50,047 nucleotides of DNA from Catajapyx aquilonaris (lineage: Eukaryota). Shown here one piece after another: positions 16,693-50,047 of the stretch. Both the position numbers and the translations under genes were made by a program. A model generated the notes under the pieces. That model did not search any database and was not told where the DNA came from. It worked only from the letters and a program-made list of their open reading frames with translations. How positions within the stretch are numbered: the first letter of the stretch is position 1; the number at the start of each line of letters is the position of its first letter. The stretch is from positions 62,001 to 112,047 of the forward strand of contig JYFJ02000727.1 of assembly GCA_000934665.2 (NCBI GenBank), in the 5' to 3' direction.

Positions 16693-17265
16693 TCAACTGG
16701 ACACGTAGGCGGCGAATGGCTCCAGTTTCTGGACGGCCGTCCGCGGATCCAGGAAGAAGTTGAAGCTCCTGAGGGAATCCTTGCAGCTGGTGTCTTTGGG
16801 CGGCGGCGATGGTCTGGGCGGCGAGGGCGGCGGAGGCGACGGCCCGGCGGACGACGGGGACGTGATGGCCTCAGAGAATGACTCGCTCAGCACAGCCGTT
16901 CCGTCCTTCTTCTCCTCGAACAGCACGCAGATGGACCCGTTCTCACCGATGCGGTACGACACCTCCTTCGGGTCGATCCACATGGTCAGCTCGCTCGGGA
17001 ACAGAGAGCGGAGGTGGCCGTTGGACAGCCCGCACAGGTCCCCCGCCTGGATGATCAGCGGGTCCATCTTGCCGTTGATACGGATGCACCGGTACCCGGA
17101 CCCCTTGAACGGACGCTCAGGAAACCAGTGGTCATGGTACCGTCGCCTCAGCAGGTCAATCAGGGTGTTTTTGAACTCCTCCAGCTGGCCATCCACTAGG
17201 AGGGTGTTGTTCAGGCGGACCAGCTGGACCAAGAAGTTGGCCGCCGAATGGATCTCCAATCGCAT
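16693..17265 (-). CDS. BTG: BTG/Tob (APRO) family antiproliferative protein, BTG1/BTG2-like, 190 aa, intronless
   Basis: Box A YHDHWFPERPFKGSGYRCIRIN, Box B FPSELTMWIDPKEVSYRIGE and a box C-like NGSICVLFEE are present. The C-terminus is short, ending SCKDSL...AAYVSS, with no long Tob-type PAM2 tail. Codons are GC3-rich, and ATG and stop are intact. Confidence 0.97.
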   Translation of the reverse strand: MRLEIHSAANFLVQLVRLNNTLLVDGQLEEFKNTLIDLLRRRYHDHWFPERPFKGSGYRCIRINGKMDPLIIQAGDLCGLSNGHLRSLFPSELTMWIDPKEVSYRIGENGSICVLFEEKKDGTAVLSESFSEAITSPSSAGPSPPPPSPPRPSPPPKDTSCKDSLRSFNFFLDPRTAVQKLEPFAAYVSS

Positions 17266-17640
17266 AATTTGTTGGTGGGTAATGTGTAAGTCCTTTTAGT
17301 CTCTGCTACCGTCTCACCTCCACAACTCGCCTCGCAATGGTGCTGCTGCTACGACAAAATGGCGGCCGATGGCCGACAATATGGCAGTTCGCTCTCTCCT
17401 CCGCCTCCCGGAGCCACTTTGCTGACCGAATTTTCACAGCCACAACTGCCACCACCGCGATGCACGGTCACCGTCGAGCAACTTTTTTTTTTTGAAGTAT
17501 CACAACCGTCGCGGCAGGTCCGGCCCAGAGATCCTTGGCGAAAAGTAATCCGGACTAGCGCACAGGCGTTGACTTGAACTGACTTGACTTTTGGTATGTG
17601 TTGAGGACTGTCCCCGCGGGTAGGTATCACGTACAGCAGA

Positions 17641-46325: not shown

Positions 46326-46967
46326 GACTGACAAGTTAACCCGCCGGGGAGGCGGGGACTGTAGAAGCGACTGCCTATATGTAACGCAGCTCTGGAATTC
46401 ACATTCCCATGGAAATGCCTTTATGAAAAAAAAAACATTTCCGTAAATTCAACGCATCCACCAATTACGCAAATTGGCCACCTCACGTGAGTTCGTATCG
46501 TTATGGGCATTCTGGGATTTTGTGGGATTTGAAACTAGACTAAATATATAATAATACAATAATAAATACACAGCATTTACAAATATTACTCCGTGTTGAA
46601 AACAAAATTTCCCACCATGCATCTACGTACATTTCTAAAGTTCTTCAGAGCAAACATATGGAATGAGGTGGGAGTGTGAAGTGGGGTTGGGGGGTCAAGG
46701 GGTCAAAAATGCAGGGGGAAAACCACGTGGCTGTGCAGTCTTTTCCTGGGCCAACTCCATCCGCATTCCTCTTTTTACACATCCAATCAGAATGTCTGTG
46801 TCGACTATACGCTATTAAGACAAGCAGGTAATCTATCACAGATAGTGACAAACTTTGGCTTATTGCAACTTATATAGGGCCCATTTTAAGACATATCGAG
46901 TTTCGAGTGTATGGAAGGGAAATTTTTACAAACACACACGCACTTCCTAAAATACTGTGTATGTACC

Positions 46968-47138
46968 TGTTGTGTCCTGTAATTATTGTAACCAGTTGCC
47001 AGACAACTGTGACTTGTTTGTCTTGTTGTAGGAACAGACCTTGAAGCTGGTCTGTTCTCGGGCTCCAGTCGTATTCTTGTAATACACCTGTTTTAGTTCA
47101 TCACCTGAGTCCTTCTTACCAGCCGTCCATACACAACA
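46968..47138 (+). repeat. 5' LTR (171 bp)
   Basis: Starts TGTTGTGT and ends ACACAACA (8-bp terminal inverted repeat). 169/171 identical to the 3' LTR. Confidence 0.98.
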
Positions 47139-47142
47139 TTTC

Positions 47143-47160
47143 TGGCGACGAGGACGGGAT
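47143..47160 (+). promoter_or_regulatory. Primer binding site, tRNA-Ser(GCU)
   Basis: TGGCGACGAGGACGGGAT lies 4 nt after the 5' LTR. It is complementary (17/18) to the animal tRNA-Ser(GCU) 3' end ...AUCCCAUCCUCGUCGCCA as I recall it. Confidence 0.85.
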
Positions 47161-47258
47161 CCATGACGGGATCTGACGGCAACGTGTGGGTAAGAAGGTT
47201 CTAGTTTTCCACAACGTGGAAAGAATTTTCACCAAGAGGTTAGTGTTTGTTGGTAACC

Positions 47259-49508
47259 ATGGCCCCTGGTATGGTGAAGCCCCTGGAGTCTTTCGTACCT
47301 GGAACGGCGGCGAACTGGACTCTGTACGAAGAGAGATGCCAGATTTTCTTCAGGGCAGCCAAAATAAAGGATGAACAACAGAAAGGTGACATGTTCCTGT
47401 CAATGTGTGGAGCAGATACCTATGCTTTACTCAGGTCACTCATGAGCCCTACCTCACCAATTGGAGCCAGTTACTCTACTATCGTAGAGACTCTTAGAAG
47501 GCACTACGTACCTGCCCCTTCACCTATCGTGGAACGGTTCCACTTGCATAAGAGGGACCAAAAGGTGGGGGAAGAAGTTGCTCAGTATGTTGCAGAACTT
47601 CGAAGGTTGTCGGCCAATTGTGATTATGGTGAGATGTTGGAGGAGATGCTCAGAGACAGATTTGTGTGGGGCCTGAGAGACCAGGCCACACAGGTGCGTT
47701 TGTTGGGAGAAGCCAACTTGACCTTCAACAAGGCCGTGGACATCGCCACTGCAGCAGAGGCAGCTGAGATAAATGTGAAACAATTGCGTTCGCAGTCCAC
47801 CATGGAGTCAGAGGTGCACCAGATAAGGGGAAGGCCGGATGTCCAGAAACCCGGAGTTCGGTGTTCTCGTTGCGGCTCCACTAATCACCATGGCAACACA
47901 TGTTGGGCCAAGGAGGTGAGCTGTAATCTATGTGGAAAAAATGGTCACATAGCCAAGGTCTGCAAGTCAAAGAAGGCAAGTGAGAAGCCCATGAAGAAGG
48001 CGGCAGATTATGGAAAATCTACCAGCAAGGCGGTCCAATCGTTGGAAGAGGCAATAAACACAGTCACTATTTTCAATGTGGATGCTGTGGCAAGACATCC
48101 TGCGCCAATGAAGGTGAATCTAGTGATAGCCGGGAAGTCAATAGAGATGGAAGTTGACTCCGGAGCAGCCTGCAGCGTAATAGATTATTCCTACTTTAAG
48201 AAGAAATGGCCCAATCGGGAATGTGAATTACGTCCACTAGACTTCCAGTTGCGGACGTGGTCACAACACCAGTTGGAGGTTGCTGGCTGTTGGAAGGTGG
48301 AAGTTGTTCACAAAGGCCAGCAACATGAACTCCCATTAGTAGTGGCAAAATCAGGTGGACCATGTGTGTTGGGCCGCGACTGGTTCAAACCCTTGGGAAT
48401 CAAAATAGAGGGCTCATCTACAGGGGTGGCTCCCGGGGCAACAGAAGCAGGCCCTAGAGTTAGACCAGGGGTGAGGAGAGTGGGTGGACAGCGGCCAAGA
48501 GGAAGGTTCCGTCCACACACTGTGGATGCTCAGCTCAGGCAGGAGAATGACAGTCTCAAGCTTGCACTGGCACAAAACTCAGCCATTACGAAGAAATGGG
48601 AGGTTGAGCTACAGACACTGAAGGACAACAACAGATGGCTTACTTCTGCCCTGCAGGAGTTAGCGGCCAGCTTGGAGGACTGGAAGGGACAGCTGCAGGC
48701 ACACAAGGAGAAGGGGAAGCAGAATGGAGTTGACGACGCTCAGGAGGAAGTCTCAGGTAGTCAAGTGTTGGCTCAGACAGCTCTTTCGGGCTTTTCCCCA
48801 GCGGTTACGGTCAGCCCCTCAAGCAGTCCAGAAGACCAGTCTCAGAAGTCCACTTCCGAGAAGGAGACTACACCAGAGGAAGTTTTCCCAGAGAAGATCA
48901 CATTAGGTGAGAAGAAAGCTGACAAACAGCCATTGGCGGCTGTTAATGAAGAATCATTGAATCAGCAAGATCAGAAGAATAAGAAGAAGACGAAGAAAAA
49001 GAAGACTAAGAAGAAGAATGACCTGACCGAAGTGCTGAAGGACGTGGTCTCGGAACAGATAACCATGGACGACCAAGCTGCCATAGGGGAAGGGGGGCAG
49101 GCCCGTGAGTACCAGGCGGGTGCCCTAGTGTACGCCCAGGACGAGGCAGCTGGGGGGAATTGGGCAAAAGGGAAGGTTATTTCTCCAGCAGGTCCCAGAT
49201 CCTACCTGGTGGAAGTTGCAGGAGGACAACAATGGAGACGACATGTGAACCACCTGCTCCAAAGATTGGGGAGGAAGGACGATGATACACCAGCAGTACG
49301 GGGTACATCGGATGCCATCAAGGGCCTCCTGAAGAAGTCCAGTGGGAGGACCCAGCAGTGCGAGTGCGAGCGGACCAGTTGCTACGATGACTATGAGACA
49401 GTGGCAGAATCAGAAGAGGCAGTAGAGGAGCCACACCCTGGTTTTCCAGAGCTGCGCCGGAGTGGAAGGGTCACCAGACGACCACCACCCCTACAGGACT
49501 ACGTCTAG
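47259..49508 (+). CDS. Chimeric polyprotein (749 aa from ATG): Gag capsid, 2x CCHC knuckle, aspartic protease, Homer-like coiled coil, Ser/Glu- and Lys-rich tract, integrase C-terminal domain
   Basis: ATG in ACCATGG context at 47259 (the ORF track starts at an upstream TTG). Gag motifs ERFHLHKRDQ...YVAELRRLSANCDYG...MLRDRFVWGL. Knuckles CSRCGSTNHHGNTC and CNLCGKNGHIAKVC (47862-47963). Protease MEVDSGAACS (DSG 48156-48164) and VLGRDW. IN C-terminus WAKGKVISPAGPRSYLVEV...RRHVNHL (49104-49265). Typical tail LRRSGRVTRRPPPLQDYV. Confidence 0.93.
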   Translation: MAPGMVKPLESFVPGTAANWTLYEERCQIFFRAAKIKDEQQKGDMFLSMCGADTYALLRSLMSPTSPIGASYSTIVETLRRHYVPAPSPIVERFHLHKRDQKVGEEVAQYVAELRRLSANCDYGEMLEEMLRDRFVWGLRDQATQVRLLGEANLTFNKAVDIATAAEAAEINVKQLRSQSTMESEVHQIRGRPDVQKPGVRCSRCGSTNHHGNTCWAKEVSCNLCGKNGHIAKVCKSKKASEKPMKKAADYGKSTSKAVQSLEEAINTVTIFNVDAVARHPAPMKVNLVIAGKSIEMEVDSGAACSVIDYSYFKKKWPNRECELRPLDFQLRTWSQHQLEVAGCWKVEVVHKGQQHELPLVVAKSGGPCVLGRDWFKPLGIKIEGSSTGVAPGATEAGPRVRPGVRRVGGQRPRGRFRPHTVDAQLRQENDSLKLALAQNSAITKKWEVELQTLKDNNRWLTSALQELAASLEDWKGQLQAHKEKGKQNGVDDAQEEVSGSQVLAQTALSGFSPAVTVSPSSSPEDQSQKSTSEKETTPEEVFPEKITLGEKKADKQPLAAVNEESLNQQDQKNKKKTKKKKTKKKNDLTEVLKDVVSEQITMDDQAAIGEGGQAREYQAGALVYAQDEAAGGNWAKGKVISPAGPRSYLVEVAGGQQWRRHVNHLLQRLGRKDDDTPAVRGTSDAIKGLLKKSSGRTQQCECERTSCYDDYETVAESEEAVEEPHPGFPELRRSGRVTRRPPPLQDYV
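48522..48710 (+). other. Captured host-gene fragment: Homer-family coiled coil (N-terminal part of the coiled-coil region)
   Basis: DAQLRQENDSLKLALAQNSAITKKWEVELQTLKDNNRWLTSALQELAASLEDWKGQLQAHKE aligns without gaps to the invertebrate Homer segment I recall as ...[55 protein letters not shown].AYKE. Recognised from memory, not searched. Confidence 0.85.
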
Positions 49509-49543
49509 TCAAATTGTGGAAGATGGTTCCTGACATTTGTACT

Positions 49544-49555
49544 GGGGGGAAGGAG
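49544..49555 (+). promoter_or_regulatory. Polypurine tract
   Basis: GGGGGGAAGGAG immediately precedes the 3' LTR. Confidence 0.9.
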
Positions 49556-49726
49556 TGTTGTGTCCTGTAATTATTGTAACCAGTTGCCAGACAACTGTGA
49601 CTTGTTTGTCTTGTTGTAGGAACAGACCTTGAAGCTGGTCTGTTCTCGGGCTCCAGTCGTATTCTTGTAATACACCTGTTTTAGTTCATCCCCTGAGTCC
49701 TTCTTACCAGCCGCCCATACACAACA
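49556..49726 (+). repeat. 3' LTR (171 bp)
   Basis: Identical to the 5' LTR except at 49691 (C vs A at 47103) and 49714 (C vs T at 47126). Followed by TSD GTACC. Confidence 0.98.
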
Positions 49727-50047
49727 GTACCCCTACCTTTACCATCACCCCAGCATACCCGGGCAACGCCGGGTAACCTGCTAGTACGCAATGAACTCTC
49801 TGAGACTGACACTGCTAGCAGAGGTTTCATCCGAGTGTCAGCCACCTCGCAGGTTGGTATCGCACCATTTTTATCCAAAAACATTTTTGTCCGATGACAG
49901 GACGAAGTTAGAGGTCATTTGACAATATTGAGGGAAATTGCTCAACTCGATTCAGCTGATAGCGATTTGAAATGGCCGTTATCAGCGACTAGCTATCTGA
50001 CTGGTCGCTTGTATGCTACTTCTGACCCCCATCCTTTGCCCCCCCCC

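Follow-up and report, generated by a model that had tools for sequence, protein, structure and literature searches.

A non-autonomous Ty3/gypsy-type LTR retrotransposon with an in-frame Homer coiled-coil segment in Catajapyx aquilonaris

Element architecture and open reading frame

The DNA analysed here (the window) is a 50,047-nt stretch of the Catajapyx aquilonaris contig JYFJ02000727.1 (assembly GCA_000934665.2), positions 62,001 to 112,047 of the forward strand; all coordinates below are window positions. An LTR element spans 46968-49726 (2,759 bp) and encodes a single ORF of 749 codons. Its features are as follows.

46963..46967, no strand: target-site duplication, left copy, GTACC, 5 bp (sequence reading; the same five bases lie 3' of the 3' LTR)
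46968..47138, + strand: 5' LTR, 171 nt, TG...CA ends (direct repeat family D1)
47143..47162, + strand: PBS-like stretch starting with TGG, 4 nt past the LTR (sequence reading)
47259..49508, + strand: single ORF, 749 codons plus TAG, comprising Gag, protease, insert and integrase C-terminal tail; ATG in the context ACCATGG
47259..48113, + strand: Gag part, with a Retrotrans_gag match at 47466-47681 and CCHC zinc knuckles at 47862-47903 and 47922-47963
48114..48413, + strand: aspartic protease, with DSGA at 48156-48167 (motif scan; PF00077 RVP, E 0.0021, below cut-off)
49098..49505, + strand: Pol C-terminal tail (integrase C-terminal region), about 136 residues, kept through the last residue (alignment to the gypsy-type Pol P0001)
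49544..49555, + strand: polypurine tract GGGGGGAAGGAG, abutting the 3' LTR (sequence reading)
49556..49726, + strand: 3' LTR, 171 nt (direct repeat comparison)
49727..49731, no strand: target-site duplication, right copy, GTACC (sequence reading)

The two LTRs are identical at 169 of 171 positions, and this divergence of 1.2% means that the copy is young. Contig joints show that, in other copies of the flanking repeat, the sequence picks up again at 49727, immediately past the 3' LTR. No second copy of the element occurs within the window itself. The window contains no tRNA gene, the PBS-like TGG stretch was matched to no tRNA, and no Rfam family was found in or around the element.

The ORF lies in a stop-free frame (47244-49508). 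Pfam matches to its Gag part are weak and below the cut-off (PF03732, E 2.7e-4; PF00098, E 0.076). The Gag-protease part aligns over about 385-400 aa with gypsy-type Pol proteins, with 38% identity to residues 7-403 of P0001 and 40% identity to residues 1-376 of P0002. Against P0001, the alignment runs as far as residue 403, corresponding to nt 48413, so that the last parent-derived residues before the insert are ...GRDWFKPLGIKIEG. Homology resumes in the tail, which aligns with residues 1179-1304 of the 1304 residues of P0001, its final 126 residues (28% identity, E 5e-9). A tblastn match of the tail lies at 49098-49313, and beta strands are predicted with low confidence at about nt 49125-49217.

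The precomputed Pfam lists of these gypsy-type Pols contain RVT_1, RNase H-like, Integrase_H2C2 and rve. A Pfam search found no RT, RNase H or rve family in the window ORF, and residues 404-1178 of P0001 have no counterpart in the element by alignment or tblastn. Because RT, RNase H and the integrase core are absent, the element is non-autonomous. Judged by these alignments together with its LTRs, it is a non-autonomous derivative of a Ty3/gypsy-type LTR retrotransposon. The initial annotation had described a gypsy LTR element with Gag, protease and an integrase C-terminal region, in which RT, RNase H and the integrase core were replaced. The LTRs, the target-site duplication, the 38-40% identity of the Gag-protease part and the tail alignment bear out the former; the missing Pfam families and the missing counterpart of P0001 residues 404-1178 bear out the latter.

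The insert and its Homer block

An in-frame insert of 684 nt (228 codons) stands where about 775 codons encoding RT, RNase H and the integrase zinc finger and core belong. It can be divided into three parts.

48414..48524, + strand: insert part 1, 37 codons, Pro/Arg/Gly-rich (predicted disordered)
48525..48713, + strand: Homer-derived block, about 63 codons, the start of the Homer coiled coil (protein searches; predicted single helix, pLDDT 93-98)
48714..49097, + strand: insert part 3, 128 codons, acidic/Ser-rich followed by a Lys-rich tract (KNKKKTKKKKTKKKN); coding-like, predicted mostly disordered

Nucleotides 48522-48710 translate as VDAQLRQENDSLKLALAQNSAITKKWEVELQTLKDNNRWLTSALQELAASLEDWKGQLQAHKE, exactly as the initial annotation had quoted them, inside the one stop-free frame of 47244-49508. 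A search with the whole ORF against 5.8 billion proteins returned 23 matches, nine of which are WH1-bearing Homer proteins (E 6e-16 to 2e-11). Using phmmer, a 103-aa query against 1.84 billion proteins gave 337 matches with E<=1e-3, 40 of them with E<=1e-10 and the best with E 3e-18. With a bivalve Homer (P0015, residues 227-286), the block shares 72% identity over 60 aa; the homology extends over 60-64 aa. The named members of the cluster are 'homer protein homolog 2' from mayfly, spiders and amphioxus. A word-indexed protein search with the 103-aa piece gave no match; the whole-ORF and phmmer searches identify this as a limit of the index. One mixed alignment (A2) was left out, as it placed EVH1 against Gag.

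The domain content of the matches points in the same direction. Among the 61 listed matches of at least 200 aa that were scanned, 48 carry WH1, 12 carry no family and one carries other coiled-coil families; in the 48 with WH1, this domain sits at the expected distance upstream of the block. Retroelement domains (RT, integrase, Pol) were found in none of these 61, and none of the best 150 of the 337 matches exceeds 505 aa. The idea that the block is an ordinary part of Pol, named in the initial annotation as a possible refutation, thus fell away, and its assignment to the start of the Homer coiled coil was upheld by Homer proteins as top matches in the protein searches.

The conserved first coiled-coil block of the Homer family, which ends in YKEE, is present, with the invariant Homer columns N, D, K, KKWE, EL, L, N, L, ALQE, E, WK, QL and KE kept. 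The block departs from the family at 3 of 23 columns with a conservation of at least 90% across 44 Homers, against a median of 0 among Homers; these departures may be read as a mild sign of relaxed constraint. Homer alignments stop at about nt 48713-48719, and the later coiled coil and the C-terminal zipper are missing. Pfam found no EVH1/WH1 domain in the ORF, in agreement with the earlier description of both EVH1 and the distal zipper as absent, and tblastn found no other Homer exons in the 50-kb window.

The remaining parts of the insert differ from the Homer block. Taken alone, the 37 codons at 48414..48524 do not resemble Homer linkers significantly, scoring 21.8 bits at best where shuffles have a median of 20.2 and a 95th percentile of 25.2; a longer BLAST alignment to krill Homer is owed to the coil block and not to the 37 residues that precede it. 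The segment at 48714..49097 has no stop in frame, as against 4-9 in each of the other five frames, and its frame stayed open in 23 of 20,000 shuffles. Protein searches found no relatives of nt 48714-49097 in any frame, and no other frame of the insert matches Homer. By these comparisons, the insert is composite, with two or more parts that differ in origin.

Junctions, origin and possible role of the chimera

The junctions were examined in Logan contigs from four sequencing runs of one sample and one study, which are possibly the source of the assembly and so are not independent of it. The protease-to-insert junction is bridged by a contig covering 48207-48420 with one difference and by another covering 48322-48581 with 24 differences. 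The Homer-to-middle junction is bridged at 48605-48863 with no difference, and at 48673-49084 with 42 differences and 15 gaps; a contig covering 49080-49293 with three differences bridges the junction between the middle part and the integrase tail. Each junction is bridged by separate contigs, with at least 31 letters on either side. Contigs about 90% identical to the window repeat the order protease, insert, Homer, middle. Such a variant shows a gap of 1 nt at 48577; a deletion variant lacks 199 nt (48704-48902), which is not a multiple of three. Since copies diverged by about 10% share the same junctions, the chimera has spread: it multiplied as a small non-autonomous family, whose copies come from one sample. 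Depth per contig, which is only a hint, was 33-76 for the Homer part, 110-186 for gag and 12-19 for the unique 3' flank. In run X5, from another sample with the same species label, matches are limited to the flanking repeat and the Lys-rich tract and are uninformative on the element.

The exon structure of Homer genes in other animals bears on the source of the block. An intron position seen in many of them maps to 48575|48576, and the block crosses it without a break. From other animals, 40 of 93 short genomic-ORF matches begin at query residues 38-40 and leave the upstream residues unaligned, and at the intron position itself P0060 has 16 and P0068 has 20 additional residues. This contiguity points to capture from a spliced mRNA. 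The 3' end of the homology lies 10-17 codons short of the exon end in other animals' ORFs, and the breakpoint therefore falls inside an exon, as template switching predicts. We infer that the block probably came from a spliced host Homer mRNA, the intron position being that of other animals' genes and not of the host's own. RNA-mediated capture, as the initial annotation had proposed, thus gains support: the contiguity over the intron position of other animals' Homer genes favours it.

Our preferred reading, to which we assign a probability of roughly 0.72, is that the element is a non-autonomous chimeric Ty3/gypsy-type LTR retrotransposon that arose by template-switch capture of spliced Homer mRNA and was mobilised in trans, with the Homer piece as a passenger. 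Reverse transcription would have taken place inside the particle of an autonomous relative. There the enzyme would have left the element RNA just past the protease and gone on to copy a stretch of spliced host Homer mRNA packaged with that RNA, plus one or more other coding sequences, before switching back to the element RNA close to the end of pol. In this way, some 775 codons would have been exchanged for 228 foreign ones, in frame by chance or by selection. The cis signals appear to be retained, namely the LTRs, the PBS-like site, the polypurine tract and, presumably, packaging signals in the leader or gag; the chimera could therefore have been copied and integrated in trans by the RT and integrase of a helper. 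The Homer piece is most likely a passenger without a role for host or element. If translated, it is predicted to form a helix of about 65 residues between the protease and a disordered tail.

Other accounts of the locus were weighed against this reading. A generic coiled coil, or a native segment of a Pol lineage, could be suspected where Pfam has no model for the Homer stretch and gives only weak, unrelated coiled-coil matches, and where a search of PDB sequences returns no Homer but only unrelated coiled coils (stathmin-like, adhesin A). The Homer searches rule this out by their E values, down to 3e-18 against 1.84 billion proteins, by identities of up to 72% and by the WH1 partners of the long matches, which lack Pol domains; on these protein comparisons, neither chance nor a generic coiled coil comes close to explaining the likeness to Homer, and we regard an origin outside Homer as virtually inconceivable. 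It is very improbable that the assembly wrongly joined reads of a retrotransposon and a Homer gene. The region is repetitive, and the supporting short-read runs come from one sample and are possibly the source of the assembly; however, separate contigs bridge every junction, and the same order recurs in the contigs of about 90% identity, which a mis-join would not produce. The continuous frame, the matched LTRs and the 5-bp duplication likewise speak against an artefact, a concern that the initial annotation had raised and that the bridged junctions, those of the diverged copies included, largely dispel. A capture at the DNA level, in which ectopic recombination or repair fused a deleted element with a Homer copy that was processed or poor in introns, would fit an insert made of at least two parts of different origin. 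We consider it improbable nonetheless, as the block runs on uninterrupted over an intron position that many other Homer genes share, and the element later integrated with a clean duplication and exists in diverged copies. Template switching, too, typically yields chimeras of several parts, as described in a survey of animal retrocopies (PMC5131818).

A further alternative concerns function rather than origin, and proposes that the fusion protein is functional and maintained, its Homer helix dimerising Gag-protease or pairing with host Homer. Such a protein could alter particle assembly, protease activation or localisation, and could aid the element as a parasite or act as a dominant negative on the helper or on Homer scaffolds. 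The whole frame of 749 codons is open, including the 228 foreign codons, which would be compatible with selection acting on the fusion protein. Both insert joins are in frame, for which the chance is roughly 1 in 9. The invariant Homer columns are kept, a single helix is confidently predicted right after a protease that needs dimerisation, and the chimeric arrangement persists in copies diverged by about 10%. Against this, an open frame is expected without selection because the insertion is young (2 of 171 LTR positions differ), and the diverged copies include the 1-nt gap and the 199-nt deletion. Nor do the variant sites favour constraint: 10 are synonymous and 16 non-synonymous among the 26 listed (there are 208 more), a set too small and too selected to measure it. 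On balance we consider a maintained function unlikely, and the passenger reading is preferred.

Retroviral-type proteases require a dimer. It is quite doubtful that the polyprotein is made and matters, with the Homer helix forcing or timing the dimerisation of Gag-protease or docking on host Homer multimers. Were this the case, the element would alter assembly or protease activation in helper particles, as a cheater or an inhibitor; alternatively, a coil-only dominant negative would cap Homer scaffolds, the mirror image of Homer1a. Release of a free Homer/IN-CTD protein, pairing with host Homer and a targeting role, all raised in the initial annotation, are likewise conjectural, as is its Mag-clade label.

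Comparison with known systems

Homer scaffold proteins combine WH1/EVH1 with a coiled coil. The element shares their first coiled-coil block, with up to 72% identity and the invariant columns kept, but is without EVH1/WH1, the later coil and the C-terminal zipper. Homer1a, a short isoform that occurs naturally, is truncated the other way round and has EVH1 but no coil. Acute transforming retroviruses make Gag-onc fusions in which host mRNA has been captured, and are replication-defective and helper-dependent.

Among the papers listed by a literature search, mostly reviews or work with the HOMER software, none deals with a Gag-Homer fusion element, judged by title or the start of the abstract. 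That LTR elements take up fragments of host genes, in some cases in frame, is known from plants and animals (PMC5131818, PMC13317346, PMC4299795). The process (LTR-mediated retroposition or gene-fragment capture) is thus already known, and the present case is a clear animal example of it.

The LTR-mediated retrocopies of animals are among the closest likenesses (Tan et al., 2016, Genome Res, PMC5131818). There, too, host mRNA lies within an element and replaces parts of the internal ORFs, the genes are often partial, chimeras with several donors occur, the captured piece often keeps the reading frame of the parental protein, and the locus can act non-autonomously and be copied again. The present element differs in being a fusion in one frame, with Gag-protease upstream, a Pol tail downstream and Homer as the donor, and its diverged copies show a longer history than that of the polymorphic Drosophila retrocopies. 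Maize Bs1, as described in a review, is likewise an LTR element without an RT of its own, in which host gene fragments form a hybrid ORF (PMC13317346). It belongs to a plant and has three donors (an H+-ATPase, a xylan endohydrolase and a beta-1,3-glucanase), whereas here an animal element has one identified donor, Homer. Crocodilian ERVs with KIT-ligand and nectin3 have likewise gained host mRNA and lost viral coding sequence (PMC4299795); there, too, the product is replication-defective and in need of a helper, and a Gag fusion is possible. Those captures are by retroviruses and usually involve whole genes or large parts of them; the present element is small, gypsy-type and without env, with about 63 recognisable donor residues.

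Set beside these systems, the locus offers a clean, datable animal case of exon-level shuffling by an LTR retrotransposon, with a recognisable donor, a splice junction crossed, intact integration hallmarks and diverged copies. Such cases reveal retroelements relocating pieces of host proteins and creating new fusion ORFs. If expressed, the fusion would bring an oligomerising module from a scaffold of synapses and muscle under the control of a retroelement, beside a dimerisation-dependent protease. The locus is chiefly of use, as a well-resolved case, to surveys of LTR-mediated gene capture in invertebrate genomes.

Anatomy of the element and its reading frame

The LTR element spans 2,759 bp (46968–49726) and holds a single open reading frame (ORF) between its LTRs.

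Features of the element (window coordinates)
46968–47138: 5' LTR, 171 nt, direct repeat with TG start and CA end
47259–49508: single ORF between the LTRs, 749 codons
48414–49097: insert within the ORF, 228 codons, in frame
49556–49726: 3' LTR, 171 nt, direct repeat with TG start and CA end

The two LTRs differ at 2 of 171 nt (1.2% divergence). The five bases GTACC adjoin both LTRs on the outside, a duplication of the kind left by integrase on insertion. Immediately 5' of the 3' LTR lies a purine run, GGGGGGAAGGAG, and a stretch starting with TGG is found 4 nt past the end of the 5' LTR. No second copy of the element occurs within the 50-kb window.

The first ~385 residues of the ORF align with the Gag-protease of gypsy-type polyproteins, with 40% identity to residues 1–376 of P0002 (E 8e-79) and 38% to residues 7–403 of P0001, two Pol proteins whose precomputed domain lists include RVT_1, RNase H-like, Integrase_H2C2 and rve. 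A motif scan revealed a pair of CCHC knuckles together with the protease signature DSGA. Retrotrans_gag, RVP and zf-CCHC gave weak Pfam matches, all below cut-off. The last 136 residues (nt 49098–49505) align with the C-terminal end of P0001 (1179–1304 of 1304, E 5e-9). Residues 404–1178 of P0001 have no counterpart in the ORF, and the 228-codon insert occupies the site of these ~775 codons, bearing out the proposal of the initial annotation that reverse transcriptase (RT), RNase H and the integrase core had been replaced. None of the RT, RNase H and rve families was detected in the ORF by Pfam; therefore, the element cannot copy or integrate itself.

Elsewhere in the window, a 200-codon open frame at 16696–17295 (minus strand) strongly matches the BTG-family domain PF07742 over residues 11–125 (E 1.2e-38). 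This is probably an anti-proliferation gene of BTG/Tob type with a single exon, and it would place the host among the animals. On the plus strand, the overlapping frame (16709–17299) had no match.

Origin of the Homer block and the rest of the insert

A search of 5.8 billion proteins with the complete ORF gave 23 matches: 14 (P0001–P0013 and P0016) cover the Gag-protease half, and in the other 9, which include proteins annotated as 'homer protein homolog 2', WH1 (PF00568) is present. Judged by sequence likeness, the block at 48525–48713 is derived from Homer. It shares 72% identity over 60 aa with a bivalve Homer (residues 227–286 of 445) and about 50% over 88–103 aa with crustacean Homers in pairwise alignments. 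An exhaustive phmmer search of 1.84 billion representative proteins with a 103-aa query (48462–48770) returned 337 matches at E ≤ 1e-3 and 40 at E ≤ 1e-10 (best E 3.2e-18); the longest protein among the best 150 of the 337 had 505 aa. Domains were scanned in 61 listed matches of at least 200 aa, leaving out P0022, a Homer match with WH1 already established. WH1 was found in 48, nothing at E ≤ 1e-5 in 12, other coiled-coil families in one and retroelement domains in none. Named cluster members were Homer proteins of mayfly, spiders, amphioxus and mite. Homer is the top match of the block, and the Gag-protease–Homer coiled-coil fusion claimed initially is confirmed.

Aligned with 11 full-length Homers, the block keeps all invariant columns of the region, and the likeness ends directly past ...QAHKE. 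In a comparison with 44 distinct Homer blocks, 3 of the 23 columns that are at least 90% conserved deviate in the window block (median of the others, 0); although six genuine Homers deviate more, this hints mildly at relaxed constraint. Neither EVH1 nor the remaining Homer coiled coil occurs in the ORF or anywhere in the window; the initial annotation had noted the lack of EVH1 and the distal zipper.

The route of capture was traced through 93 matched stretches in proteins of at most 200 aa, from ORFs called on Logan, ENA and JGI contigs. Similarity begins at query residues 38–40 in 40 of them (at residue 39 in 28), and in these cases at least 6 unaligned residues, often rich in Phe, Ile or Leu, lie upstream. 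Two genomic ORFs of other animals, P0060 and P0068, hold both flanking exon parts and have 16 and 20 extra residues inserted precisely where ...LALAQ(R) meets SS(T)NAKKWE. A conserved intron would leave such a pattern in ORFs called naively. At that position (48575|48576) the window is uninterrupted, from which we infer a spliced Homer mRNA as donor, with the intron position taken from the other animals' ORFs; the RNA-mediated capture suggested earlier thereby gains support. The 3' limit of homology falls 10–17 codons short of where the short ORFs lose Homer likeness, and therefore the downstream breakpoint lies inside an exon.

The 37 codons 5' of the block (48414–48524) are not independently Homer-like, and no relative was detected for the 128 codons 3' of it (48714–49097). 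The latter stretch has no in-frame stops versus 4–9 in the other five frames, was open in only 23 of 20,000 shuffles, resembles the remaining ORF in codon-position GC pattern, and looks coding. Because it is coding-like yet lacks a detectable relative, the insert probably had at least two donors. Within these 128 codons, an AAG-rich tract (48975–49020) encodes KNKKKTKKKKTKKKN. A nuclear-localisation-like patch is one possible reading of the tract; a decayed, A-rich leftover from a captured transcript is another. Contigs of X5, a sequencing run of another sample under the same species label, matched only this tract within the element, through low complexity.

Integrity of the locus, related copies and coding potential

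Four DNA runs, from one sample and one study, contain about half (0.49–0.57) of the words sampled from the stretch. The assembly may have been built from these runs, so they do not support the locus independently. Near-identical contigs bridge the protease-to-insert (48207–48420) and middle-to-Pol-tail (49080–49293) junctions, and a contig at 48605–48863 bridges the Homer-to-middle junction with 0 differences. Contigs about 86–91% identical show the same order of parts.

Diverged contigs
48322–48581: 24 differences
48404–48693: 27 differences
48673–49084: 42 differences and 15 gaps

Mis-assembly was rejected as the origin of the chimera, being unable to yield diverged paralogues with identical joins.

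A variant lacking 48704–48902 (199 nt) is represented by one contig per run at a depth of 24–44. CACA at both edges suggests a microhomology-mediated deletion, which would put the ORF out of frame directly past the Homer block. In contigs of a ~90%-diverged copy, a 1-nt gap at 48577, in a CAAAAC run adjoining the conserved intron position, is a frameshift, so this older copy is dead. Per-contig depth, which is not a copy number, was 110–186 for gag, 33–76 for the Homer part and 12–19 for the unique 3' flank, hinting at several copies.

The flanks (46400–46960 and 49727–49815) belong to a very abundant repeat, with a summed contig depth of about 3,000–42,000 versus 12–19 on the unique flank; searches of this repeat for Rfam families and tRNA-like genes gave no match. 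Many contigs join about 46916–46965 straight to 49727 and are paralogous empty sites in other repeat copies. As they resume at the first base past the 3' LTR, they fix the insertion boundary.

AlphaFold2 predicted a single unbroken helix for the Homer block, between disordered flanks, with pLDDT 93–98 for about 48522–48716 using a Homer alignment and 94–97 for about 48534–48713 from the single sequence; the Pol-tail strands had low confidence. The LTR divergence implies few changes since insertion, so the intact frame needs no selection. In a small, selected sample of 26 listed variant sites (208 others lie beyond it), 10 were synonymous and 16 non-synonymous. Nothing in the data points positively to constraint on the fusion. 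A functional fusion, argued from the in-frame joins and retained Homer invariants, is improbable.

Comparison with known captures

The initial annotation was right in its observation and core interpretation. Acute retroviruses carry Gag-onc fusions, and the Homer1a isoform is EVH1-only. A full-text literature search found no description of a Gag-Homer retroelement fusion among the matches listed. Tan et al., 2016 (PMC5131818) report loci of exactly this architecture from Drosophila, mosquito, fish, chicken and mammals. There, retrocopies lie within discontinuous LTR elements in place of internal ORFs, switch points show microsimilarity, capture is often partial and at times from several donors, ORFs are frequently in frame, and there are signs of loci re-copied as non-autonomous elements. 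A 2026 review (PMC13317346) covers maize Bs1, which holds three captured host fragments, and the switching of templates among co-packaged RNAs. A retroviral parallel to the Homer capture comes from crocodilian ERVs with captured KIT-ligand and nectin3 (PMC4299795). The element is a well-resolved instance of a class already known and does not represent a new kind of system.
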